A stretch of DNA of 16,465 nucleotides, taken from IMG/VR virus record IMGVR_UViG_3300006183_000003; one strand, written 5' to 3'. The position numbers and the translations under genes are program-made. The stretch comes from a virus. The notes under the pieces were generated by a model. It was not told the origin of the DNA, did no database searches, and saw only the letters and a list, made by a program, of their open reading frames with translations. Positions 1 through 16,465 of the stretch are shown here, piece by piece; the first letter of the stretch is position 1, and each line of letters begins with the position of its first letter.

Positions 1-34
1 CAGTGGGTTCCGGGTTCAAGTCCCGGGGGGTGTA
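1..34 (+). tRNA. 3' portion of a tRNA gene (end of anticodon stem, variable loop, T-arm, acceptor 3' strand); 5' part lies outside the window, isotype not assignable
   Basis: T stem is CCGGG (10-14) / CCCGG (22-26) with the canonical T-loop TTCAAGT (15-21). It is followed by the 7-nt acceptor strand GGGGTGT (27-33) and discriminator A (34). CCA is not encoded. Confidence 0.5.
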
Positions 35-36
35 CT
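1..36 (+). repeat. attL core: 36-bp direct repeat identical to 16430..16465
   Basis: CAGTGGGTTCCGGGTTCAAGTCCCGGGGGGTGTACT occurs at 1-36 and again, base for base, at 16430-16465. Confidence 0.85.
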
Positions 37-265
37 TTCCAGTCACGAGCCACTCGTAGGGTGCGCCCGTCTTCAGTGCCCACAGCCGAAGCGTCTGCAC
101 GCCCGGCTGGACTCGATCATTCATCCAAGTGCTGACGGTCGTGGGCTCGACGTCGAGGTAGTCGGCCATTTCGCCCCGGCTGACGCCGGCCACCTTCATG
201 GCGCGCTTCATCCTGTCGCCGAGCGTGAACGCGAAGCGATCGGGCATGGTCTGAGTGATGGTCAT
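1..265 (-). CDS. XRE/Cro-CI family HTH repressor, prophage form; 3' end runs through the att core and out of the window
   Basis: This ORF is absent from the ORF track because no stop occurs inside the window. From ATG at 265-263 the reverse frame reads MTITQTMPDRFAFTLGDRMKRAMKVAGVSRGEMADYLDVEPTTVSTWMNDRVQPGVQTLRLWALKTGAPYEWLVTGKYTPRDLNPEPT (88 codons) and continues past position 1. The HTH (VSRGEMADYLDVEPTTVSTWMN) is typical of the XRE family. Track ORF 117..335(-) is an Arg-rich off-frame overlapping it. Confidence 0.8.
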   Translation of the reverse strand, partial: MTITQTMPDRFAFTLGDRMKRAMKVAGVSRGEMADYLDVEPTTVSTWMNDRVQPGVQTLRLWALKTGAPYEWLVTGKYTPRDLNPEPT

Positions 266-307
266 GGGGCGATTCTCGCATAACGTTGTGCCCGCTTGCA
301 ATACGGC

Positions 308-349
308 CAGATCGCAACCTTGTGCCAGATCGCACAATGTGCGATGATC
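308..349. promoter_or_regulatory. Operator-like palindrome(s) in the divergent repressor/early intergenic region
   Basis: A perfect palindrome ATCGCAC-AAT-GTGCGAT lies at 329-345. A degenerate copy, ATCGCA-ACCT-TGTGCC, lies at 311-326. CAGATCGCA is directly repeated at 308-316 and 326-334. The region lies just upstream of the ATG at 357. Promoter hexamers could not be assigned confidently by eye. Confidence 0.55.
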
Positions 350-356
350 CAACACT

Positions 357-545
357 ATGAACGATGAAGAACTGCTCGACACTGCGCAGGTGCAGCGCGA
401 GCTCGGCTTCAAGTCACCATCGGCCGTCTCGAAGATGGTCAAGCGCGGAGCGCTGGACCCCATCAAGAAGCACCGCGGCGTCCGCGGACCCTTCCTGTTC
501 TCTCGCGCCGACGTCGATCGCATCAAGCAGGAGCGTGCGTCGTGA
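357..545 (+). CDS. Excisionase-family (MerR-like) HTH small DNA-binding protein; Cro and/or Xis candidate
   Basis: This 62-aa ORF is divergent from the repressor. LLDTAQVQRELGFKSPSAVSKMVKRGALDP...FLFSRADVDRI matches the excisionase-type HTH pattern (HTH followed by a wing, then xxxDV/L). Confidence 0.75.
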   Translation: MNDEELLDTAQVQRELGFKSPSAVSKMVKRGALDPIKKHRGVRGPFLFSRADVDRIKQERAS

Positions 546-3021: not shown

Positions 3022-3261
3022 ATGAAAGTTGAGACGAGTGAGTACCTGCGGATGCTTGCCCGGATGCTGGCTGCCGCGGGACGACGCGTTGCGGAGGCGG
3101 ACGAGGATGAGCTCGCGCAGCTCGTTGCGTTGCGTGACGTGTTGGAGAGCGCGATCGAGGCTGGTGTGCGTGGTCAGCGTGCCTCGGGGTCGTCGCTGGC
3201 TCAGATCGGCCGTGGGCTGGGCGTGAGCAAGCAGGCCGTGCACAAGAGGTGGGCGTCGTGA
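3022..3261 (+). CDS. Small HTH DNA-binding protein (79 aa)
   Basis: The preferred start is ATG 3022 rather than track start GTG 2941, which lies inside the hairpin. The C-terminal HTH is SLAQIGRGLGVSKQAVHKRW, preceded by a helical acidic segment. A small-terminase-like or regulatory role cannot be resolved. Confidence 0.6.
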   Translation: MKVETSEYLRMLARMLAAAGRRVAEADEDELAQLVALRDVLESAIEAGVRGQRASGSSLAQIGRGLGVSKQAVHKRWAS

Positions 3262-3878
3262 GCTGGCAGGCGACGGAGGTCGTTGACCAGCTGCCCTACG
3301 ACCTGGTCAAGCCTCTCGCGTTCCGGGTGCTGTTGAAGCTGGCGAACGTCGCGGACCCGGAGGGGCGGCGTGCGTGGCGGTCGAAGTTCGAGCTGGCGAA
3401 CGAGCTCGGTGTCGATCAGCGTTCCATCCAGCGGGCATTGCGGGAGCTCGAGCAGGCACACCTGATCCGTAAGGGGGATCAGAAGTTCGTCACGCACATC
3501 CGCGCCGGGTACCGGCCGACCGTCTACGACATTGTCATGCGCCGCCCCGGTGACCACGGAATGCAGCCCCTCGATGACGGCATGGAGGAAGTTGAGACCA
3601 GGGGAGACACGGTTATCCACAACCCCGTGAGGGGAGACACGAGGGGAGACACGGACAGTTCCACAGAGGAACTAAAGAACCATCTACTTAACACTCAAGA
3701 AGAATCTCTAGACCCAGCCGCGCGCGAGCACGAGGCCCTCCGGTCAAGGTGCGCCCCGCCGTTCAAGGCGCACGAGTTCGTGGGCGGGATCTGCATCCAC
3801 GGGTGCGGCGTCTATGCCGACGGTCGAGTCGAGGACCCCAGGACCGGGCTCACGATCCTCGAGGCGGTGCCGCGATGA
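3258..3878 (+). CDS. Winged-helix DNA-binding protein, replication-initiator-like (alternative: small-terminase-like)
   Basis: GTG 3258 forms a GTGA overlap with the preceding gene (track start is 3249, in frame). The N-terminal wHTH is FRVLLKLANVADPEGRRAWRSKFELANELGVDQRSIQRALRELEQAHLIRKG, as in DnaD/replication-organiser-type phage proteins. The gene contains a triple DNA repeat plus an AT-rich patch. Confidence 0.65.
   Translation: MSWQATEVVDQLPYDLVKPLAFRVLLKLANVADPEGRRAWRSKFELANELGVDQRSIQRALRELEQAHLIRKGDQKFVTHIRAGYRPTVYDIVMRRPGDHGMQPLDDGMEEVETRGDTVIHNPVRGDTRGDTDSSTEELKNHLLNTQEESLDPAAREHEALRSRCAPPFKAHEFVGGICIHGCGVYADGRVEDPRTGLTILEAVPR
3600..3654 (+). repeat. Three direct copies of AGGGGAGACACG (iteron-like) inside CDS 3258..3878
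   Basis: The copies lie at 3600-3611, 3630-3641 and 3642-3653 and encode a repeated RGDT. They are immediately followed by the most AT-rich stretch of the window (about 3655-3712). Confidence 0.6.
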
Positions 3879-4171
3879 GCGAGTGGCACCGCGATCCGGT
3901 CTACGTGAAGAACTCACGACAGGTGCGTCGCATCCTCACCCCGCAGATCGAGCACGGCGAGTACGTGCGGTGCGTCAACTGCGGACGCCCCGTGCACGAG
4001 GGGCAGCGCTGGGACGTGGGGCACATCGTGGCACCGAGGCACGGCGGCACCCACGACCTCTCGAACCTCGGCGCGGCACACCGTCGCTGCAACCGTAGCG
4101 ATGGTGGCCGTGAGGGTGCGGCCATCACGAACCGCGGTAGCCGCAGGGCTCGCCGTCTGCCGAGTTGGTGA
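3875..4171 (+). CDS. HNH endonuclease (packaging-associated)
   Basis: ATG 3875 forms an ATGA overlap with the preceding gene, giving 98 aa. CVNCGRPV...WDVGHIVAPRHGGTHDLSNLGAAHRRCNRSDG is a classic HNH motif. The gene lies directly upstream of the large terminase, as in HK97-like cos phages. Confidence 0.85.
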   Translation: MSEWHRDPVYVKNSRQVRRILTPQIEHGEYVRCVNCGRPVHEGQRWDVGHIVAPRHGGTHDLSNLGAAHRRCNRSDGGREGAAITNRGSRRARRLPSW

Positions 4172-5907
4172 CGGCGATGGGTCGACCGAAGCTGAGCTAC
4201 ACCACGCAGCAGCACCAGCCGCTGTCCCTGCTCGACGAGGAGGTCGAGGCGGAGGCGGGCTTTTTTTCAGCGACGCCGCCACCCCCGCCTACGGCTCTCA
4301 AAGCGGCTTCTCCCCCCGAAATAAAAAATAACTCGGGCCGGAAAATCGCGGCAGACTTCCCGCCGGACCTGACCGGCAACCCTCTGCTCGAGGAGGCCGC
4401 TTGGCTCGATCTGCGCTCTCGTGCGCTCACTCCCAAGCACGTCTCGGAGCTCGTCACGAGCGATCGGGATCGGCGCGAGTTCCTCGAGGGCGCAAGGCTG
4501 CTCCGCCTCGACGGTGCAACGCGCCAAGGGGACCGGCGCCTGCAACCTCAGCAGCTCGTCATCGCGGATATGCTCGCCGCCGGCCACAAGCACAACGCGG
4601 TCATCATCCCGCGCCGCGGCACCAAGTCCACCTCGGTCTACATGACAGGTATCGGGCGCGCGGTGCATCGTGAGGACTACCGGGTCGGGATCTTCGACAC
4701 CCGCTCCGGGAAGGCCGGCCGGTCACGGTTCCTCAAGGACGTGGCGCCGCACCTCGAGCGCCTCTACCCGGACAAGCGCAGCCGTCCCTTCACCGTGGTG
4801 CGGATCGCGGGCATGGAGGGCATGTCGTTCGCGCGCACCGGCGGCGGGGTCGTCAACTGGCTCTCCACGATCGACGACATCCGCGGCGAGGCGTTCGACA
4901 TGCTGGTCCTCGACGAGGCCGGCGAGCCCCGCGACCCGGGGTTCGTGTCCGAGATCATGGCCGCCGCGCTGCCGACCTTCGACACCCGCCCCGATGGGCA
5001 GCTCGTCATCATCGGCACCGCGGGCCGGTTCAAGGCCGGCAACATGCTCTGGGACGCGCTCGAGCAAGGCCGCAACGGGTCCGGCGGCATCGTGGAGTAC
5101 GCCGCGCCTGACGGAATCACCGACGAGCAGCTCGAGGCGTGGGAACCCACCGAGGAGCACCCCTACGCCCGGGTGCGCGAGCTCGTCGAGCTCACCCATC
5201 CAGGCGTCGACACCCTCACCACCATCGAGACCATCCACGGCAACTACGATCTCTCGACCGACGTGGAGAAGTTCGCGCGCGAGTACCTGTCAATCTTCGG
5301 CAACATCGGCGAGAGCGTCGGCCTCATCGACCCCACCAAATGGGCAGATGGCGGCACCGGCGGCGACCTCCCGACCCCGCCGCCGAACTTCGCCCTCGCC
5401 TTCGCCCCGCACCCCGACCAGCTGTGCGGGTCGATCGTCGCCGCCTGGCGCGACAAGAAGGGCCGCGCGCACGTGCTCATGCTCGAGCACAAGACCAACG
5501 TGAAGTGGATGGCCGCCGAAACCGCCCGCCTCGCCCGCAAGTACCAGCGCCGCCTCACCTACGACGGGAAATCGCAGGTCGCCCTCAACATCGTCGAGGA
5601 CCTCACCCGCGCCCGGCCCCGGCCCCGCATGGACCCCCGCGACGTCACCGACGTGAAGCAGGGAGCCGCGCTCCTCGTCGATGAGATTCACCGCGGCAAC
5701 CTCACCCACTACCGCCAACCCGAGCTCGACCTCGCCGCCCGCCGGGTCCTCAAGCGCTCCATCGGCGTCAACGGGTGGGCCTTCGGCCGCGGCCGCGACT
5801 TCGACATGGACATCACCCCCCTCGAAGCCGCAGCCCTCGCCCTCCTCGCCTACGACCAAGGCCAACCCCGCACCACCGGCAAACCCGCCATCACCTTCGC
5901 CGCATAG
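4168..5907 (+). CDS. terL: Terminase large subunit with ~110-aa low-complexity N-terminal extension
   Basis: GTG 4168 forms a GTGA overlap (alternatives: TTG 4165, ATG 4177). Landmarks are the Q-motif-like LQPQQLVIADML, the P-loop-like IIPRRGTKST and the Walker B FDMLVLDEAGE. Size and position upstream of the portal fit a large terminase. No in-frame ATG/GTG/TTG exists between 4177 and 4572. Confidence 0.85.
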   Translation: MTAMGRPKLSYTTQQHQPLSLLDEEVEAEAGFFSATPPPPPTALKAASPPEIKNNSGRKIAADFPPDLTGNPLLEEAAWLDLRSRALTPKHVSELVTSDRDRREFLEGARLLRLDGATRQGDRRLQPQQLVIADMLAAGHKHNAVIIPRRGTKSTSVYMTGIGRAVHREDYRVGIFDTRSGKAGRSRFLKDVAPHLERLYPDKRSRPFTVVRIAGMEGMSFARTGGGVVNWLSTIDDIRGEAFDMLVLDEAGEPRDPGFVSEIMAAALPTFDTRPDGQLVIIGTAGRFKAGNMLWDALEQGRNGSGGIVEYAAPDGITDEQLEAWEPTEEHPYARVRELVELTHPGVDTLTTIETIHGNYDLSTDVEKFAREYLSIFGNIGESVGLIDPTKWADGGTGGDLPTPPPNFALAFAPHPDQLCGSIVAAWRDKKGRAHVLMLEHKTNVKWMAAETARLARKYQRRLTYDGKSQVALNIVEDLTRARPRPRMDPRDVTDVKQGAALLVDEIHRGNLTHYRQPELDLAARRVLKRSIGVNGWAFGRGRDFDMDITPLEAAALALLAYDQGQPRTTGKPAITFAA

Positions 5908-5913
5908 TGTGTC

Positions 5914-6978
5914 GTGATCGCACAATGTGTGATGATCTGCCAAACTACAACCGTGGGATTCTGGAATTGGTTGCTGGGGCGTCCTGCTCCGACTGCTCCG
6001 GCGTCCCCGTATGCGAGCGGGTCGGATCTGGTGCAGCTCACCGTGAAGGAGCTGTTCGGGGATCTCGATCCGCAGATCGTGACGGAGGACATCGCATCCC
6101 GGGTGCCGGGGCTGAGGCGTGCGCACGCGGCGCACTGCGGTCTGGTCGCGTCGATCCCGTTCGCGCAGTACGACAAGGCGACCCGTCTGGCCGAGCAACC
6201 GTCGTGGCTGTCGACGTCGCAGTCGGGCCGGTCGCCGTATCTGCGGTGGATGGGCATCACCTCCGACATGTTCTGGTGGCGGTGGGCGCTGCTGGCCGCT
6301 GAGCTCGGCCCGGACGGGTACCCAGCCGACGCGATCCACGTCCCGCAGGGATTCTGGTCCGTCGACGAGAACGGCGACATCCAGGTCGACGAGAAGGTCG
6401 TCGAGCCCCGCTACCGTGACCGGTTCATCCCCATCGATCTCGGCATCAACGGCGTCCTCACCGACGGGATCGACACCATCCGCTCCGCTCGCTGGCTCGA
6501 GCAGGCCTGGCAGAAGCGGGCCGAGAACCCCGTCGCGCAGACCGAGCTGCACCTCACCGAGGAGATCCAGCTCTCCCGCAAGGACAAGCTCAAGATGGCG
6601 CGCGACTACGAGGAAGGCCGCCGCGCCTACGCCACCTCCGTCACCCCCCACAACATCGAGGTCAAGCAGCACGGCATCGCCGCCGCCGACCTGTTCGAAT
6701 CCGGCCGCAACGCCGTCCGCCTCGACATCGCCAACATCGCCCTCGTCCCCGCATCCCTCATCGAGGGCGCCAAGAACGGCTCCGCGGGCGAGATCAGCTA
6801 CAGCAACGAGACCACCAAACGCAACGAGCTCTACGACTTCGGTACCGCCCTGTTCGTCAACGCCATCGCCGCCCGGCTCTCCGAGGACGACGTCTGCCCT
6901 CCCGGTCAGTCGATCCGACCCGAGCTCGCCGACCTCATGCAAGTACCCACCCCGACCCTCACCACCGTGGAGGACTGA
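5914..6978 (+). CDS. Portal protein (small, HK97-like); true start probably ATG 5932 or GTG 5953
   Basis: The gene lies immediately after terL and before the protease-capsid gene and encodes 342-354 aa. The central and C-terminal region (RNAVRLDIANIALVPASLIEGAKNG) is portal-like. An N-terminus VGFWNWLLGRP from GTG 5953 resembles typical portal starts. Confidence 0.7.
   Translation: MIAQCVMICQTTTVGFWNWLLGRPAPTAPASPYASGSDLVQLTVKELFGDLDPQIVTEDIASRVPGLRRAHAAHCGLVASIPFAQYDKATRLAEQPSWLSTSQSGRSPYLRWMGITSDMFWWRWALLAAELGPDGYPADAIHVPQGFWSVDENGDIQVDEKVVEPRYRDRFIPIDLGINGVLTDGIDTIRSARWLEQAWQKRAENPVAQTELHLTEEIQLSRKDKLKMARDYEEGRRAYATSVTPHNIEVKQHGIAAADLFESGRNAVRLDIANIALVPASLIEGAKNGSAGEISYSNETTKRNELYDFGTALFVNAIAARLSEDDVCPPGQSIRPELADLMQVPTPTLTTVED
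5916..5937. promoter_or_regulatory. Second copy of the operator-like palindrome (21/22 identical to 328-349) in the terminase-portal gap
   Basis: GATCGCACAATGTGTGATGATC (5916-5937) compares with GATCGCACAATGTGCGATGATC (328-349). It lies in the only sizeable non-coding gap of the late region. Confidence 0.5.
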
Positions 6979-6981
6979 CCC

Positions 6982-8880
6982 ATGACCGACAACCTCATCC
7001 AGTTCGAGGCGGGCGACGTGCTCGCCAACCTCGAAGCGCGCACCATCTCCGGGCTCCTGCTCCCGTTCAACGAGGAGGGCCGCACCAACGTCGGCCGCTT
7101 CCAGGTGCAGGCGTCCGCCGTCGCGATCCCTGCCGACCCCGCCGTCGTGGGCCTGAACATCGGCCACGAGCGCTCGCACCCCGTCGGCCGCGCGGTGAAG
7201 CTCGAGCAGCGCAAGGGCGGCATCTTCGCCACCTTCCAGATCGCCAAGACCCCCGAGGGTGACCAGGCCCTCGCCGCCGCCCTCAACGGCACCCGCCGCA
7301 AGCTGTCCGCCGAGTTCGGGCCCGCGTTCATCAAGGCGGGCAAGCTCGTCGCCGGGCACGCCAAGCTCTGGGGCGCCGCCCTCGTCGAAGCCGGCGCGTT
7401 CCCGTCCGCGCAGGTCCTCGCCGCCGACACCCCCGACGAGGAGGTGCCCGCCTCCGACCCCTACACCTCACCCGAGGCATCCAGCTCCTCGCAGTACGTG
7501 ACCGAGTTCACCGACACCGACGGCGTCAAGTGGCGCCGCATCGAGGAGAACACCTCCACGACCACCATCGAGAAGGTGACCGAGACCCCCGAGTCCGCCC
7601 CGGACGAGGAGACCCCCAACGAAAGTGAGACCGAAGTGACCGCATCCGCCGCCGGGGTTCAGACGCCGGCCATCCCCCAGACCGTGCTCGCCTCCGCCCC
7701 CCAGACGCCCGCGACCACGACCCCCCGCCCCGTCGACCTGCGGCAGGTGTTCGCGTCGATCGCCGCCGTGAAGGCCGACCCCGGCGACCAGGAGAACACC
7801 CAGGTCCTCGCCGCGCTCACCGACATCAAGATCAGCGGCGCGAACGCCCTCCCGACCACCGACGTCCTGCGCCCCAACTGGGTCGGCCAGATGTACGACG
7901 GCATCCCCTACGAGCGCGAGTACATCAACCTCGGCAACCTCGGCACCGACATCTCCGCCGCCGGCAAGAAGGGCTTCAAGGTCAAGCGCGGCACCACCGG
8001 CTCCCCGATCCCCTCGCCCGCCGGCATCCCCAACGGCGGCGACTGGGCCGGCAACAAGACCGAGATCAACTCGTACAACGGGTTCACGCAGACCGCGGTC
8101 TCGGCCCTGCGGCGCTTCGCGGTCGGCCACGACATCGCCCGCGAGTTCTACGACCTCCCCGGCGGCGCCGAGGTCGTCGAGGCGTTCCTCAAGCTCGTGC
8201 TCGAGGACCACCTGTACTGGTCGGACATGTGGGCCCTGTTCGACCTGCAGTCCGCCGCCGGCATCCCCATCGCCGCGGGCACCTACCCGACCGACTACCC
8301 CGCCGCCCTCGGGCAGCTCATCCAGGGCATCCTCGCCGTCAAGGCCCGCAAGGCCGACGGCCGCCGCGACGTCCCCACCTTCGCGATCGCCAACGACGAG
8401 GCCTACGCGCAGCTCGTCTACGCTGCCGGCGGCGAGCAGCACCTGCCCGCGTTCGTGAAGATCGCGATCTCGACCAACTCCTCCGGCACGGTCGACGGCG
8501 ACATCCAGGTCGTGCAGGGCGACACCGGCATCACCGGCAGCCCCTCGGTCATCGTCGGCGCCAAGCGCGCCGTCGAGTTCGACGAGCTCGCCGGCGGTCC
8601 GCTCATCGTCAACGCCCTCGAGCTCGCCAAGGGCGGCATCGACCGCGCCGTGCACGGCTACCTCCAGACGTTCCCCGTCCGCGACGAGGCCGTGGTCATC
8701 ATCGGCACCGCCCCGAACCGTGCCAACTCCACCGCCTACGACCGCGGCGACCTCCTCAAGCGCGGCAGCAACACCTACCGCGTCGTCGTCGCCGGCACCA
8801 CCGCCGGGTCCGCCCCGACCGAGCCCGCCGCCGGCGAGACCGTCGGGGACGGCACCGCGACCCTGCTCCGCCTCGCGTGA
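6982..8880 (+). CDS. Prohead protease (HK97 S78/U35-type) fused to HK97-fold major capsid protein
   Basis: 632 aa, with RBS GGAGGA at 6969-6974. Residues ~1-150 carry protease landmarks (ISGLLLPFNEEG, NIGHERSHPVG, KLSAEFGP, LWGAALVEAGAFPSA). Residues ~150-265 form an acidic/Thr/Pro linker. Residues ~270-575 are capsid-like. A ~57-aa tail follows. Confidence 0.8.
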   Translation: MTDNLIQFEAGDVLANLEARTISGLLLPFNEEGRTNVGRFQVQASAVAIPADPAVVGLNIGHERSHPVGRAVKLEQRKGGIFATFQIAKTPEGDQALAAALNGTRRKLSAEFGPAFIKAGKLVAGHAKLWGAALVEAGAFPSAQVLAADTPDEEVPASDPYTSPEASSSSQYVTEFTDTDGVKWRRIEENTSTTTIEKVTETPESAPDEETPNESETEVTASAAGVQTPAIPQTVLASAPQTPATTTPRPVDLRQVFASIAAVKADPGDQENTQVLAALTDIKISGANALPTTDVLRPNWVGQMYDGIPYEREYINLGNLGTDISAAGKKGFKVKRGTTGSPIPSPAGIPNGGDWAGNKTEINSYNGFTQTAVSALRRFAVGHDIAREFYDLPGGAEVVEAFLKLVLEDHLYWSDMWALFDLQSAAGIPIAAGTYPTDYPAALGQLIQGILAVKARKADGRRDVPTFAIANDEAYAQLVYAAGGEQHLPAFVKIAISTNSSGTVDGDIQVVQGDTGITGSPSVIVGAKRAVEFDELAGGPLIVNALELAKGGIDRAVHGYLQTFPVRDEAVVIIGTAPNRANSTAYDRGDLLKRGSNTYRVVVAGTTAGSAPTEPAAGETVGDGTATLLRLA

Positions 8881-10122: not shown

Positions 10123-10623
10123 ATGGCGGGCAGTGGGCGTATCTCGCTGCTCGTCGACTCCCCGCTCCGTGACCTCGCATTCGCCATGCGCGAGCTGGAC
10201 ACGGAGGTGAAGCGGCAGATCGGCGCAGCGACCAAGCAAGCCGCGTCTCCGATCTGGCTCGAGTCGATGCGCGGCCACGCGACCAACCGGATGCAGGTCC
10301 GTCTCGCGGACTCCGCGCAGGTCGGTGTCACCACGCAGAACGTGTTCCTGCGCGCCGGAGCTGTCGGGAAACTGTCCTCCGGCACCCCGATCAGCGTCGT
10401 CGCGAAACCGATCGAATTCGGCGCCAACCCGAACCGCATCGTGACCGTCACCACCCGCAAGGGCACCACCTACAAGCGTCGCCTCGGCACCCGCTACCGC
10501 CTGCCCCGACGCGGCGGGTACGTCGCCTACCCTGCCGCCGGGGACAGCATCCCCCGGTTCGCGTCCCTCTGGGTGCAGACCGCCATCCGCACCATCCACG
10601 AGACCGTGGAAAGGGTCGCCTGA
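10123..10623 (+). CDS. HK97 gp10-like head-tail/tail-completion protein
   Basis: 166 aa. LRDLAFAMRELDTEVKRQIGAATKQAA..., PIEFGANPN and the C-terminal YPAAGDSIPRF resemble the HK97-gp10-like family layout. It occupies the slot where tail chaperones usually lie. Confidence 0.5.
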   Translation: MAGSGRISLLVDSPLRDLAFAMRELDTEVKRQIGAATKQAASPIWLESMRGHATNRMQVRLADSAQVGVTTQNVFLRAGAVGKLSSGTPISVVAKPIEFGANPNRIVTVTTRKGTTYKRRLGTRYRLPRRGGYVAYPAAGDSIPRFASLWVQTAIRTIHETVERVA

Positions 10624-11717
10624 TGGCCAAGCCCCCCATCGAGATCGGCATCTCTTCCGAGACCAAGGCATTCAAACAGGGCGTCGAGGGCGGCATCATC
10701 AAGCCCCTCGAGGACGCATCCGACAAGCTCGACGACCTCGGCAAGAGCAAGGGACCCGACCAGCTCGAGCGCGAGCTCGTCGAAGCGCAGAAGGCCACCA
10801 AGCAACTCGGCCGCGAGGTCGACCGCACCGCTGACGACATCGAACGCGACTTCCGCGACAGCTACCGCTCCGCCGAGCGCTCCGCCGACGACTTCCACGG
10901 CACCGCGACCGAGAATGTGCAGGGCTTCAAGGACGAAGCAATCCAGAACTTTTCCGAAGTCGCATCCAGCTTCGACGGCGATATGCAGTCGATGGCGGAC
11001 GGCGTGCAGGGCCTCACGGGTGGGCTCGCTTCCTCCCTCACCCCGGGTGTCGGCATCCCCATCGCGATCATCGGCGCGATCGCCGGCGCATGGTTGCAGT
11101 CATGGGCCGAAACCACGGAGGAGGCAAAGCAGCGCGTCTCCGACATGTATCAGGACATGATCGAGTCGGGGCAGGCGTTCCTCTCGGAGGACTTCGTCAC
11201 GAAGGCTCTCGCCGACATCATCGACGACGACGGCAAGCTCGCAAAGGCGCGCGAGGACTCCAAAAAGTTCGGCCTCGACATGCAGACCATCCTTCGCGCG
11301 CAGGCTGGCGACCAAGCGGCCATCAACATCGTCATCGAACAAGGTCGCAAGCTCCGTGAGGAAGAGGTCGCCGCCGCCTACTCATCGGGTCAGGCCTACG
11401 ACGTCATGAAGACGAAAGCCGATGAGGTCAACCTTCAGTGGGATCGGGCTCTCGGCACCTACACCGATGTGAACAGCGAGATTCAGAAGTCCGTCGACAA
11501 GGTCAACCTCTACCGCGAGGCCACCGACAAAGCTGCCTCAGCTGACCAAAAGCGGTGGGAGGCCCTCGGCCGCGCCCTCGCCGGCACACCGACCCAGATC
11601 GTCGTGGACGTCGACACCTCCGCCGCGGAGAAGAAGATCGGCGACTTCCTGCGCATCCCGCGGAAGGTGGGCATCGAGACGATCTTCGAGACCCGGAACG
11701 GGAGCAAGGTCCCGTGA
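10623..11717 (+). CDS. Tape measure protein (unusually short, 364 aa)
   Basis: The protein is highly helical and acidic, with a central Gly-rich hydrophobic segment (GGLASSLTPGVGIPIAIIGAIAGAWLQSW). It lies between the tube and minor tail genes, and TGATG overlaps the upstream stop. Confidence 0.6.
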   Translation: MAKPPIEIGISSETKAFKQGVEGGIIKPLEDASDKLDDLGKSKGPDQLERELVEAQKATKQLGREVDRTADDIERDFRDSYRSAERSADDFHGTATENVQGFKDEAIQNFSEVASSFDGDMQSMADGVQGLTGGLASSLTPGVGIPIAIIGAIAGAWLQSWAETTEEAKQRVSDMYQDMIESGQAFLSEDFVTKALADIIDDDGKLAKAREDSKKFGLDMQTILRAQAGDQAAINIVIEQGRKLREEEVAAAYSSGQAYDVMKTKADEVNLQWDRALGTYTDVNSEIQKSVDKVNLYREATDKAASADQKRWEALGRALAGTPTQIVVDVDTSAAEKKIGDFLRIPRKVGIETIFETRNGSKVP

Positions 11718-12064: not shown

Positions 12065-13278
12065 TGGCGGTGGTCGACCAGCAGGACATCCAGCTGTCCG
12101 TCGATGGTGAGCCGCTAACGCACGTGCTAGGCGAGGGCGACTTCCTCACGATGGATCGCCGGTGGACACCGTACATCCAGGGACGGTTCACCGTGGAGGC
12201 GCCGGTAGATCCCACCGTGCTGGATCCCCGCACCCGGCCGATGCTCGATGTCGTCCTCACCCAGCGGTTCGGGTCGGGTGTGCAGCTCACCTCAGACCTG
12301 ACCGCGCTGTGGGCGGGTCAGCTCACCTCAGACCTGACCGCGCTGTGGGCGGGTCAGCTCACCTCCGCCATTTCCGCCTACGAGCGGGGCTGGTACGGGG
12401 ATGAGATCCCCGCCACAGCGATGCAGGTGACCGTTCTCGTGCGGCGGTGGAGAGACAACTTCGACGGGACGCACACCCTCACCGTCGAGGGCATCGAGTC
12501 AATGCTGCGGGATTACCCGCTTCCGAACCTCGGGGACTTCAATGTGCTCGGGTTCACCGCAGCCACGGCCCGCGGCCTCTATAAGGTGGCGCTGGCGCAC
12601 TGGCAGCTCCTCTTCCTCGGCACCCCGGTCCTCCCGCTGTCGGCTGGCCCCGGTGATGTTGCTATCCCGCCCGGTCAGCTCACCGACACCCCCGATGCCA
12701 CCTTCGCTCCGGTCGCCGATAAGGCCACCCTCTACACGCTTCTCCAGCCCTATCTGCTCATCGGCAACCTGCGACTCTGGGGCGACGAATGGGGGCGGCT
12801 GCAACTCACCCCTGTCGATGAACCGACCCTCGACACGATCGTGCTCGACGCGCCGAAGATCATGGACGGCGCTCCCGAAGTCAACATCGACGATGACCTG
12901 TGGGCCGATGCTGTCGCGATCGAGTTCGACGAATCGCCGATCTCTGCCGCCCGCCCGCGCCTGTTCTACTACCAGTCGACGTCCGATCCGGCCACGAAGA
13001 TCCTGCGCTGGAAGATCGACGCCCCGTCACCGTTCATCGCCTCCAACCTCGACACCCTCGGCCCGCAGATCGCCGTCCCCGTGCTCGAGCGGTTGCTGCG
13101 GCGAGGCCGCGTCGTCCCCGTCTCGGCCGTGAACAACTTCGCCGCCCGGCCCGGCATGACCCTCGTACTCGAGGGGATGCCGGACGTGCCCGATCAAACA
13201 GGGACGATCGCCGCCATCACATGGCAGATCGATGACGCCGAGATGACCATCACCGCCGACAATCTGGAGGAGCTATGA
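12061..13278 (+). CDS. Minor tail protein (405 aa) containing an in-frame perfect tandem duplication
   Basis: GTG 12061 forms a GTGA overlap (track start 12028 is in frame). The gene lies after the tape measure and the small tail protein. It contains QLTSDLTALWAG x2 followed by QLTS. Confidence 0.6.
   Translation: MMAVVDQQDIQLSVDGEPLTHVLGEGDFLTMDRRWTPYIQGRFTVEAPVDPTVLDPRTRPMLDVVLTQRFGSGVQLTSDLTALWAGQLTSDLTALWAGQLTSAISAYERGWYGDEIPATAMQVTVLVRRWRDNFDGTHTLTVEGIESMLRDYPLPNLGDFNVLGFTAATARGLYKVALAHWQLLFLGTPVLPLSAGPGDVAIPPGQLTDTPDATFAPVADKATLYTLLQPYLLIGNLRLWGDEWGRLQLTPVDEPTLDTIVLDAPKIMDGAPEVNIDDDLWADAVAIEFDESPISAARPRLFYYQSTSDPATKILRWKIDAPSPFIASNLDTLGPQIAVPVLERLLRRGRVVPVSAVNNFAARPGMTLVLEGMPDVPDQTGTIAAITWQIDDAEMTITADNLEEL
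12283..12365 (+). repeat. Perfect 36-bp tandem repeat, 2.3 copies
   Basis: CAGCTCACCTCAGACCTGACCGCGCTGTGGGCGGGT occurs at 12283-12318 and 12319-12354, followed by a partial copy CAGCTCACCTC at 12355-12365. Confidence 0.95.
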
Positions 13279-13928
13279 GCCTCAGCAGCCCGGACGGCAA
13301 CGGCCTTGGCCGATACGCCGAATCCACGCCCATCGGCACCAAGTTCAGCGACTACCTGAACCTCGCCCTCACCGCCGTGTCGCGGCTCTTCGGCCGACCG
13401 ATGCAGTTCGCCAACTCGACCGCCCAGAATGCGCACACGGGGATGCAACTCGGCGACAAGGCGCTCCGGCAGGACACCGGCATCCTCATGCGTTACGACG
13501 GCACCGCGTGGAAGGAATGGGAGTCCGGGTGGTTCACCTTCTCCTCCGTGCTCTCCTTCACGGTCGGCACCGGAGGCAGCAGCAGCGTGAAGTACCGGTA
13601 CGTCAACGGCGACATGGAGATCAAGTTCAAGTTCAAGTTCGGTTCGAGCCCGACCTTCACCGCGTTCGTGTTCACCGTCCCACTCCTCGAACTGCCAGAG
13701 CCGAACGAGGAATACGGGCAGGGCTGGCTGCTCGACTCGGGCACAGCAACCGCTCGGTCGATCATCCGCGCCAACGGCACCCTCAACAACTCCGTCCAGA
13801 TCCTCACCCACACCACAGGCGCATCCTCCGGAGCACCGACCGCGACCGCCACCATCACCGCGACCGCCCCGTGGACATGGGCCAACGGAGATGTCGCCGC
13901 GGGACGATTCATGCGGAGCCCCGCATGA
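13275..13928 (+). CDS. Minor tail protein / receptor-binding candidate (217 aa)
   Basis: There is an ATGA overlap upstream. FANSTAQNAHTGMQLGDKALRQDTGILMRYDGTAWKEW resembles the conserved N-terminal motif of actinophage tail-fibre-like proteins. The C-terminal half is beta-rich. Confidence 0.5.
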   Translation: MSLSSPDGNGLGRYAESTPIGTKFSDYLNLALTAVSRLFGRPMQFANSTAQNAHTGMQLGDKALRQDTGILMRYDGTAWKEWESGWFTFSSVLSFTVGTGGSSSVKYRYVNGDMEIKFKFKFGSSPTFTAFVFTVPLLELPEPNEEYGQGWLLDSGTATARSIIRANGTLNNSVQILTHTTGASSGAPTATATITATAPWTWANGDVAAGRFMRSPA

Positions 13929-14548
13929 GCGCCAACGGTCAACTCCGAGACGACGAGCTCGCCTACATCGACGAGCACACCCGTCTCGCCGTCGCACCCG
14001 CACGTGCATGGGCGGCCGCGAAAGCCGCCGCCGCCCGCGACGAGGTCGAGCTACGAGCAACCCCGTCGACCATCTGCCCAGGGATCGCCGGTTACCGCGA
14101 TCTCGACATGCAGGACTGGCTCATCGCGCACCCGACCGGTCCCGCCCCGATTGCATCCCGCGGCGCATCCACCCACGGCTACGGCACCGTCGTCGACGTC
14201 GACCGGGGGCTCACCTGGATGCGCAAGCACCCCGAGTACGGGTTCGTGTTCGACACCATCCGCGGCGAGCCCTGGCACGTCCTCATCCGCCCGCCCGCAT
14301 GGGCAAGCACCGGCACGACCCCGATCACCACCCCAGAGGAAGAGGAAGAAATGCCCTTCATTCTCATGTCCACAGGCCGCGGCAAGTGGCTCATCAACGC
14401 CACAAACGCCCACCACCTCACCCCCGAGGAGGATCGGCAGATCATAGATCTCGCCGCCTCGGGCATCGGCCCCTACCCGGTCAAGGACTGCGGCACCAAC
14501 GATCGCGCCTTCGACCTCATCAAGACCGCCCACACCCAGCCATCGTGA
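13925..14548 (+). CDS. Endolysin: M15 (VanY-like) zinc peptidase domain plus C-terminal domain of unknown function
   Basis: ATG 13925 forms an ATGA overlap and is in frame with the tail of track ORF 13508..14548. SRGASTHGYGTVVDVD (H-x6-D) and GEPWHV are M15 metallopeptidase motifs. A poly-Glu linker (PEEEEEM) separates these from a ~70-aa C-terminal module. Confidence 0.75.
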   Translation: MSANGQLRDDELAYIDEHTRLAVAPARAWAAAKAAAARDEVELRATPSTICPGIAGYRDLDMQDWLIAHPTGPAPIASRGASTHGYGTVVDVDRGLTWMRKHPEYGFVFDTIRGEPWHVLIRPPAWASTGTTPITTPEEEEEMPFILMSTGRGKWLINATNAHHLTPEEDRQIIDLAASGIGPYPVKDCGTNDRAFDLIKTAHTQPS

Positions 14549-14856
14549 TCGAACTCCTCGGCGCGTCGATCGGCGGCGCGAGCCTCGTGCTCGCCGCCGT
14601 GCTTCCCGTGCTGCTCTCCACCCGCAAGCGCGCGGGTACGGCAGCCGAGCACGCGCGTACCGCCGCCGAGCAGACCACCAACTCCCACGAATCCAACCTC
14701 CGCGACGACCTCGACGAGAAGCACAGCGAGAACGCCGGCCGCATCGGGAAGCTCGAGCGACGCCTCGGCGGCGTCGAGCGCGGTGTGCGACGCATCGAGG
14801 AACACCTCGCCATCGAACAGACCATGCCCGCCCCACCTAGAAGGAAGAGACCATGA
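14545..14856 (+). CDS. Membrane-anchored coiled-coil protein (lysis accessory or holin-like)
   Basis: GTG 14545 forms a GTGA overlap with the endolysin stop. VIELLGASIGGASLVLAAVLPVLLSTRKR provides an N-terminal TM helix, followed by a charged helical segment. It is in frame with the tail of track ORF 13891..14856. Confidence 0.55.
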   Translation: MIELLGASIGGASLVLAAVLPVLLSTRKRAGTAAEHARTAAEQTTNSHESNLRDDLDEKHSENAGRIGKLERRLGGVERGVRRIEEHLAIEQTMPAPPRRKRP

Positions 14857-15496: not shown

Positions 15497-16371
15497 GCCG
15501 CCGCGGCGGCAGCTCGTCGCAGGTCGTCGTCGTCGATCGCGGTGTAGATCTGCGTCGTAGCGACGCTCGCGTGTCCGAGTAGCTCTTGCACGGCCCGGAG
15601 ATCGTGCGACCCGCGGTAGGCGCGCGTTGCGAATCGGTGGCGAAGCTTGTGTGCGGTCTCGCCAACCGGGAGAACCGCGGAGATGAGTTTGGACACGTAT
15701 CCCGCCGAGAGGTGGCCGTCGATCTGCCCACTGAAGATGAATCCGGGCCCGGCCCGCAGCACCTCATTGGCCAGCTCGTCAGTGATGGGGACATAGCGGC
15801 TCCTTCCACCCTTGCCGAGCACGCGCAGCAACCACCCGCCGGCGGTCGAGACGACGTCGTGTGTAGAGACCTGGCACACCTCGCAGCAGCGGAGCCCCAC
15901 GTATGCGGCGAGCTGGACCATGAGCCGGACCCGCTCGTCTGCGCGCGCGAGGGCTTCCTCGAGCGCCGCATCGGAAGCAGGTCGCGGCTTGCCGGGGGAA
16001 AACGATACGCCGGGGAAGTGCTCGGCGAGGTTCCGCTCGGTGAGGCCTGCTTCGGCAGCCCATCGGTAGAACGCAGCGATAGAGGATCGGGCGGCGCGGC
16101 GGGTGTTCTGTCGCCAGTGGGAGTTGTGCTCGAGGTGGGCGAGCATGTCATCCCGGGTGACGTCGTAGGGCGGTAGGGCAGTCGCACGCGCAAAACGCCG
16201 CAGGTGGTAGTCGCGCAACTTGATGGACGAGACGGGCCGACCGGTGGCGACCTGGTAGCCGCGAAATCGATCGAGCTCGGGCTGCCACGTCGCAGGCGCG
16301 AGGATCTCGGTTCTCATACCCGAGTCTCGCGCTAGGGAATCTTGTGCGCGCGGCCCCCATTCGGGGGTCAC
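15493..16371 (-). CDS. int: Tyrosine recombinase / phage integrase
   Basis: 292 aa. Catalytic landmarks are Arg in AAYVGLRCCE, HKLRHRFAT (H-x-x-R) and LLGHASVATTQIYT (His and the Tyr nucleophile). The gene is adjacent to the right att repeat. Its GTG start is at 16371 (alternative ATG at 16317). The C-terminus is RRAAAAAA. Confidence 0.9.
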   Translation of the reverse strand: MTPEWGPRAQDSLARDSGMRTEILAPATWQPELDRFRGYQVATGRPVSSIKLRDYHLRRFARATALPPYDVTRDDMLAHLEHNSHWRQNTRRAARSSIAAFYRWAAEAGLTERNLAEHFPGVSFSPGKPRPASDAALEEALARADERVRLMVQLAAYVGLRCCEVCQVSTHDVVSTAGGWLLRVLGKGGRSRYVPITDELANEVLRAGPGFIFSGQIDGHLSAGYVSKLISAVLPVGETAHKLRHRFATRAYRGSHDLRAVQELLGHASVATTQIYTAIDDDDLRRAAAAAA

Positions 16372-16429
16372 GCGGCGAGCCTAGTCGCGGATACCCTCGG
16401 CCCACGGAGCGCGATCACCGGCTGGGAAA

Positions 16430-16465
16430 CAGTGGGTTCCGGGTTCAAGTCCCGGGGGGTGTACT
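16430..16465 (+). repeat. attR core: 36-bp direct repeat identical to 1..36
   Basis: It matches 1-36 base for base. The preceding 40 nt do not fold into the 5' part of a tRNA, so this is the copy not joined to the tRNA body. Confidence 0.85.

Follow-up and report, generated by a model that had tools for sequence, protein, structure and literature searches.

A repressor gene read through the attachment core of a 16.4-kb Micrococcales phage points to integration-dependent immunity

At the left end of the viral record IMGVR_UViG_3300006183_000003 (IMG/VR; 16,465 bp, hereafter the window) a leftward open reading frame for a small helix-turn-helix (HTH) repressor runs into the terminal repeat of the element and leaves the window without meeting a stop codon. 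This raises the question whether integration of the element itself decides which repressor is made. An earlier note, based on the letters of the window, placed the attachment core inside the repressor gene and proposed the switch logic of the BPs/Brujita/Charlie type of mycobacteriophages on a much smaller phage backbone. Integration-dependent immunity is described as an int-rep-cro cassette with attP inside rep and -LAA-like tags on viral Rep and Int; with a tRNA attB, a core of about 35 bp, a stop at the junction, no recombination directionality factor (RDF) and no arm sites (PMC3694055, PMC4557955, PMC9262239); and with neighbouring, co-transcribed rep and int in the viral genome, a divergent cro-like gene across a control region of 100-300 bp, and a long Rep that is degraded and inactive as opposed to a short one that is stable and gives immunity (PMC3694055, PMC9262239). 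We took these characters from the authors' addendum (PMC3694055), the study of the BPs repressor (PMC4557955) and the 2022 review (PMC9262239) and compared them with the element, its host flanks and its relatives. We consider it likely, at roughly 85%, that the element, a 16.4-kb temperate tailed phage of a Micrococcales host, carries such a switch.

Positions 1-36 and 16430-16465, the two ends of the window, are an exact 36-bp direct repeat; since the same 36 bases stand at both ends, the window corresponds to one integrated element of 16,429 bp plus the duplicated core. Features are collected in Table 1. Besides a replication initiator, large terminase, portal-position gene, capsid-protease fusion and tape-measure-like protein the gene set includes an HNH gene, and judged from this content the element is a complete small tailed phage. 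A phage satellite (PICI) was considered and rejected, the structural gene set being complete. The source record labels the host as "Micrococcales bacterium" (MAG). The nearest isolate by the capsid fusion is Microbacterium phage PensacolaC28 (16.7 kb, 46% identity), followed by small Arthrobacter and Gordonia phages. When the whole window was compared by megablast with 50,697 phage records there was no match, so that kinship to those records is visible at the protein level only. The ORF at 2074-2904 consists nearly entirely of GCG/GAG-rich tandem units of 9-12 nt and encodes an Ala/Glu/Arg/Trp-rich product without a family match; its counterpart in the assembly that supplied the host flank (L001) measures 190 aa versus 276 aa, hence the repeat length is polymorphic between samples.

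Table 1. Positions of the features of the element within the window, with the basis of each assignment.
Feature	Positions	Strand	Basis
attL common core	1..36	+	exact repeat of 16430-16465; 3' part of host tRNA-Lys(CTT)
rep, prophage form, codons 1-88 of 89	2..265	-	translation; 89-aa gene calls at attL; Pfam
Five-helix HTH DNA-binding domain of Rep (residues 15-75)	41..223	-	AlphaFold, Pfam
rep-cro intergenic control region, 91 bp	266..356	.	read directly from sequence
Candidate operator, perfect palindrome ATCGCACA-A-TGTGCGAT	329..345	.	repressor binding presumed
First rightward gene, 62 aa, HTH_17, cro position	357..545	+	Pfam HTH_17, 1.1e-5
Replication initiator	3249-3878		PHROG and tblastn searches
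Large terminase	4165-5907		PHROG and tblastn searches
Portal-position gene	5914-6978		PHROG and tblastn searches
Second operator-like palindrome copy, 1 mismatch	5917..5933	.	at junction of terminase stop and portal start
Capsid-protease fusion	6982-8880		phrog_2263, 8.8e-40
Tape-measure-like protein	10623-11717		PHROG and tblastn searches
int, tyrosine integrase, 274 aa	15493..16317	-	Pfam Phage_integrase, 9.6e-22
Detached 3' end of viral-form rep	16368..16429	-	in-silico excision; 20 codons with base 16430
attR common core	16430..16465	+	exact repeat; host tRNA terminator hairpin next in host

In the window, which holds just the 3' part of the tRNA, ARAGORN accordingly reported none. We reached the prophage flank through public assemblies that contain the neighbouring 62-aa gene, and in this host flank (L001) ARAGORN predicted a tRNA-Lys(CTT) on the plus strand at L001 5606-5679. 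The core equals tRNA-Lys positions 40-73 plus 2 nt, and the remainder of the tRNA-Lys(CTT) gene stands upstream of it in the flank. In the right-hand host flank the tRNA terminator hairpin lies directly 3' of the core. The identity is exactly 36 bp at both sides, since the attL and attR flanks were compared and the hairpin follows directly after the core. The attB of the element is in this way the 3' end of a tRNA gene, with an exact 36-bp core and the tRNA rebuilt upon insertion.

On the minus strand the ORF from ATG 265 has 88 stop-free codons to position 2 (end ...GKYTPRDLNPEPT / ...WLVTGKYTPRDLNPEPT), and both remaining minus-strand frames are interrupted by stops. Positions 37-2 carry codons 77-88, of which the first base of K77 alone falls outside the core, such that the core encodes, antisense to the tRNA, part of residue 77, residues 78-88 and the first base of codon 89. 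In the host flank one codon follows (GAT, Asp) and then a TAA, which is the antisense of anticodon-loop bases 35-37 and lies just outside the window; no long domain continues there. The prophage form thereby has 89 aa and ends in ...NPEPTD. Because the window contains both att copies, the excised form could also be rebuilt: the in-silico attP joins 16429 to the core and then to position 37. Here the frame continues into 20 codons (VSQPVIALRGPRVSATRLAA), followed by the TGA at 16370-16368, which gives a protein of 108 aa that ends in ...PEPTVSQPVIALRGPRVSATRLAA (...SATRLAA). This detached tail joins rep only in the excised or tandem (attP) configuration. Since the attachment site lies inside the repressor gene, integration into tRNA-Lys replaces a 20-residue tail ending in -LAA by one residue and a stop. 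The architecture drawn by the earlier note, with the core in the repressor ORF and antisense to the tRNA, 12 core-encoded codons at the end of the window and a C-terminus swapped by integration, is thus confirmed, the codon count being right to within one base of K77.

The note had also described the protein as a bare HTH without an S24 domain, and this agrees with what we find. Pfam recognized Phage_CI_repr/HTH_3 only (residues 17-79, E = 1.7e-7) and no S24 peptidase domain in a protein of at most 108 aa. The AlphaFold model of Rep, built with 12 homologues, has five helices over residues 15-75 with pLDDT above 90 for residues 11-75, and residues 86-108 have pLDDT below 50. The helices end at residue 75, and the att core hence begins two codons past the folded HTH domain. 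The low-confidence tail is predicted to be disordered. A cleavable repressor of the lambda CI/LexA type was considered and rejected: the S24 domain is absent, only HTH families match and the modelled tail is disordered.

In the viral layout rep and int lie on one strand, with 50 nt between the excised rep stop (16368) and the int start (ATG 16317), while the HTH_17 gene diverges from rep across the control region. Int residues 17-269 align to 2-262 of the 263-position XerA model, and the XerA/XerC models are covered end to end; because of this end-to-end alignment with two-domain Xer recombinases, Int has no arm-binding domain. The predicted disorder of the Rep tail and the armless Int fit an exposed tag. 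At 16344-16370 there is a G/C hairpin, CCCCC-ATTC-GGGGG (plus strand), at the end of the viral-form rep tail and upstream of int. It lacks a T-run and may be a candidate Int site or an attenuator.

Both forms of rep are present in public assemblies. The 89-aa protein is already gene-called at attL in two of these (L001, L007) and the 108-aa protein is gene-called where int follows rep, at attP-type junctions (L002, L005, L015, L016). Among 12 Rep relatives retrieved by protein search at 47-100% identity, every one of those with 47-85% identity continues through the same core, which speaks against a chance occurrence. Three independent contigs represent the excised form (L008, L011 and L012; 16,942, 16,360 and 16,121 bp, with 36/36, 34/36 and 36/36 core positions identical to the window). 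In all three the HTH_17 gene points one way and rep and int the other, followed by virion genes, with rep directly upstream of int. In none of them does a stop precede the core; such a stop, like a long conserved domain encoded by the host flank, had been named by the earlier note as counter-evidence, and neither was seen. Identical copies of the element occur in many samples and the Int protein is found in 82 index blocks.

Some assemblies show less usual arrangements. Tandem identical copies 16,429 bp apart were found in a 1.8-Mb contig of JGI 3300024981 (L002/L003 and L014/L015) and in ERZ778025 (L005/L016), with the 108-aa rep directly upstream of int at the internal attP-type junction; such a pair may reflect either a true double lysogen or the joining of reads from excised circles during assembly. 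Two independent assemblies (L004, L007) are identical to the window from attL to position 1920 and then continue into unrelated host-like genes (aminotransferase, cation efflux), a second core being absent. These are either a remnant that retains the 89-aa repressor, presumed stable, or chimeric assemblies.

To what extent the C-terminal ends are conserved was studied in a set of relatives enlarged by scans of IMG/VR and GTDB. Loci were classed by whether int follows rep; the prophage-type class has a rep 3' end that overlaps a tRNA or lies at a prophage boundary. The GTDB genome scan yielded only five loci, with one clear tRNA-Lys prophage form. Following the core-encoded YTPRDLNPEPT, the tails of the relatives are unalignable and have 13 to 33 residues. 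Nevertheless 24/30 non-redundant viral-form tails end in -AA, as opposed to 0/16 prophage forms and to a background of 4.4% among six-frame ORFs of at least 60 aa in the same DNA. A strict -AA is missing in the other six viral forms, which end in TA, VA, SA, AS or TG. The difference between viral and prophage forms has a Fisher p of 7.5e-8 and that between viral forms and background a binomial p of 1e-27, both of which overstate independence because the surveyed sequences are related; the tails have nonetheless diverged past alignment. One relative, P0008, and its prophage counterpart (L032, 2501-2791) read the tRNA-Lys core in another frame, with VHPPGLEPGTH instead of YTPRDLNPEPT, and the viral form of P0008 still ends in -SVAA. 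Other relatives embed other tRNA cores, such as tRNA-Asn in L022 and L058. Int of the element ends in ...DLRRAAAAAA, and 14/21 relatives' Int proteins also have an -AA end. An acidic end is the classical non-degron control for ssrA tags; the prophage form of Rep ends in -TD. As judged from these sequences, the -AA end is conserved across the family in viral forms only and is retained with different tRNAs and in two reading frames of one core, and we regard the survey as clean, non-experimental support for the switch model.

The first rightward gene occupies the cro position and is kept at the same place in two of the excised-form contigs (L008, L012). Its match to HTH_17, at 26.0 bits versus a cut-off of 27, falls just under the curated cut-off, and an NCBIfam search of the protein matched no family, excisionase models included. 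This 62-aa protein is the sole candidate for an RDF, the HTH_17 family including excisionases. In Gordonia phage McGonagall (L019, NC_030912.1) an ORF at 14021-14209, unannotated in the RefSeq record, likewise encodes a 62-aa HTH-like protein in the cro position. It equals the gene of the element in length and shares the motif PG..G..F....E.ER by eye; BLASTP between the two proteins gave no reportable match, so the likeness is by eye only.

Promoters in the control region were read by hand and lie below the threshold of a consensus scan of positions 1-700, which found none. The candidates are weak and apparently leaderless: leftward TTGCAA (301-296) with TGcGAGAAT (280-272), and rightward TTGTGC (320-325) with GATGAT (343-348). 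The palindromic candidate operator sits between the -35 and -10 of the rightward candidate and overlaps one of two GCCAGATCGCA direct repeats (306-316, 324-334). The half-site TTGTGC/GCACAA recurs in the control regions of relatives, and a TGCGAGAAT-N6-ATG motif upstream of rep is common to the window and one excised-form contig (L011). The second copy of the palindrome has a chance expectation of only 0.01 matches and may be a further site from which the repressor acts on the late genes. The BPs repressor binds several sites across its own genome (PMC4557955).

Taken as a switch, the system would work as follows. As long as the genome is free, rep (108 aa, -LAA) is followed by int (274 aa, -AAA) in the same orientation; both diverge from the cro-position HTH gene and the lytic genes, and the two would be co-transcribed. 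From the ssrA-like C-termini of viral Rep and Int we infer degradation by ClpXP-type proteases; immunity would then be unattainable from the free genome, because both tagged proteins are presumably degraded. An Int that survives long enough would join attP to the 3' end of tRNA-Lys(CTT) by a crossover inside rep. Integration would strand the 20-codon tagged tail at the opposite end of the prophage and rebuild the tRNA, and Rep would now end past one host codon at the TAA antisense to the anticodon loop. The resulting 89-aa Rep, with a complete HTH and a -TD end, would presumably be stable and would confer immunity from the palindromic operator over the rightward promoter, possibly also from 5917-5933. 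In the lysogen int would be severed from the rep promoter.

Could the overlap of attP and rep simply be incidental? In a compact genome attP may abut a short HTH gene, the antisense T-arm of the tRNA may be open in this frame by accident, both Rep forms may be equally active and lysis or lysogeny may be decided elsewhere. In favour of this, long ORFs arise by accident in GC-rich DNA (125 of at least 40 aa in the window), the sequence of the core-encoded peptide is dictated by the tRNA rather than by protein function, and a similar gene order lacking both tags and an internal attP is seen in Arthrobacter phage Galaxy (PMC5513430). We nevertheless consider this improbable, given that the -AA end is frequent in diverged viral forms, is absent from prophage forms and is rare in the background, that it persists despite a changed reading frame over the core, and that Int bears the same kind of end. 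Moreover, our search found no other repressor candidate, antirepressor or S24 domain. That the element is a conventional Int/Xis phage, in which the 62-aa protein is an excisionase (RDF) instead of a Cro analogue, Xis sets the directionality and truncation of Rep is a secondary modulation, has slightly smaller odds still. HTH_17 (PF12728) contains many excisionases and the match of the protein to it is weak, but the gene opens the rightward early operon, exactly the place of cro in the described systems (PMC3694055), Int lacks the arm-binding domain for an RDF-remodelled intasome, excisionase models did not match in NCBIfam, and the conserved tags would be left unexplained.

The least probable explanation is a decaying cryptic prophage, with the truncated rep as by-product of an old insertion. 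The two assemblies that break off at position 1920 into unrelated DNA could be read in its favour. It is contradicted by the complete gene set, from replication initiator and HNH to terminase, portal, capsid-protease fusion and tape measure, by the recurrence of identical copies and of Int in many samples, and by the existence of attP-type junctions and of complete contigs of excised length. Integration-dependent immunity hence remains our preferred reading, and, so far as sequence can tell, the predictions that follow from the BPs/Brujita/Charlie logic hold.

Both Rep and Int have homologues among the parts of published integration-dependent immunity phages. Annotated immunity repressors of Cluster P mycobacteriophages share 41-44% identity with Rep (E 1e-11 to 9e-13), and Int is 44-48% identical to the integrases of, among others, Gordonia Cluster CW phages, Weirdo19 and an M. 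abscessus prophage (E 1e-45 to 5e-51). BPs (Cluster G), Charlie (N), Brujita (I1) and Cluster P share with the element the int-rep-cro cassette, attP in rep, a tRNA attB, a shorter untagged prophage Rep with the stop at or next to the junction, -LAA-like ends on Rep and Int, and an Int without an arm-binding domain. They differ in that their genomes measure 41-50 kb and their switches are experimentally defined, whereas that of the element is read from sequence. The BPs Rep forms have 136 and 103 aa versus 108 and 89 aa here; BPs uses tRNA-Arg with the stop exactly at the junction, whereas the TAA of the element comes one codon later, within the anticodon loop.

The closest counterparts in size are the Gordonia phages of Cluster CW (McGonagall, Jeanie, GMA5, GRU3), for which this switch with a 37-bp attP in tRNA-Lys has been described (Pope et al. 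2017, PMC5559632). Like the element they are small siphoviruses (17.1-17.7 versus 16.4 kb) with a capsid-protease fusion (about 31% identical), attP inside rep and a tRNA-Lys attB (core of 37 versus 36 bp). McGonagall Rep reads the tRNA antisense in the same frame (RDSNPEPA versus RDLNPEPT) and ends in ...CAIRDSNPEPADRLLSLVAA (-LVAA), and its Int is 47% identical to that of the element. Unlike the element they belong to phages of Mycobacteriales rather than Micrococcales; there is no nucleotide-level similarity, Rep is 30% identical, the core matches at 27/36 positions, and the HNH/replication-initiator early region of the element contrasts with the gene set of McGonagall. Without a megablast match to phage records and with such a distant capsid fusion the element is not a member of Cluster CW. 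In small prophages of Bifidobacterium, Bb423phi2 and 689b-1, the same logic has been described (Mavrich et al. 2018, PMC6109161). Compared by description only, these are also related to small-genome actinophages and have rep by one att and int by the other, and in-silico excision adds 18 C-terminal residues with an ssrA-like tag, versus 20 here; they differ by their tRNA-Met and Bifidobacteriales host. The small backbone stressed by the earlier note was therefore already known, since Cluster CW (about 17 kb, tRNA-Lys attB) was published in 2017, and small bifidobacterial prophages use the switch as well.

Two further phages may carry related modules. PensacolaC28 (L018, PP978844.1) resembles the element in size, in its capsid fusion (the 46% identity extends over the full length) and in carrying its XRE gene on the same strand as a tyrosine integrase. 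It differs by an integrase annotation split in two, an additional HTH gene between XRE and int, a sense-oriented tRNA-like segment in the XRE ORF and an XRE protein with no -AA end; because the arrangement differs, we rejected it as the same system. In its region 13009-14728, XRE gene 20 carries the tRNA T-arm-like peptide SEGWEFESLRAH in sense orientation, and the arrangement could represent the same switch in variant or decaying form. Arthrobacter phage BlueFeather (L071, MT024867.1) has at 13785-14096 a 50%-identical Rep homologue, gene 19, with a divergent HTH gene; an integrase was not found downstream of gene 19, and it seems that int was lost from this small phage while the repressor module stayed.

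A literature search found no description of the switch in Microbacterium or other Micrococcales phages. The mechanism is already known in mycobacteriophages and small Gordonia phages, and novelty is limited to the host order and the phage lineage. Going further is speculative, and we hold the following extension to be doubtful as a whole: that a single 89-aa repressor directly controls the early promoter and, via 5917-5933, the late genes in a Micrococcales lineage of about 16 kb, which would place it among the most compact self-contained temperate tailed phages; that tRNA-Lys is favoured since the Lys anticodon plus A37 always gives an antisense TAA right after the core; and that, as the use of one core in two reading frames and of cores from other tRNAs suggests, any open antisense tRNA frame together with an -AA end would, as a rule, serve.

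The element leaves the current understanding of phage switches unchanged. If our reading is right, the range of integration-dependent immunity widens to take in an uncultured Micrococcales host and a 16.4-kb lineage common in metagenomes. Together with the 36-bp attB, the rep/attP/int cassette (about 1.3 kb) could be a compact integration-and-immunity module for Micrococcales genetics.
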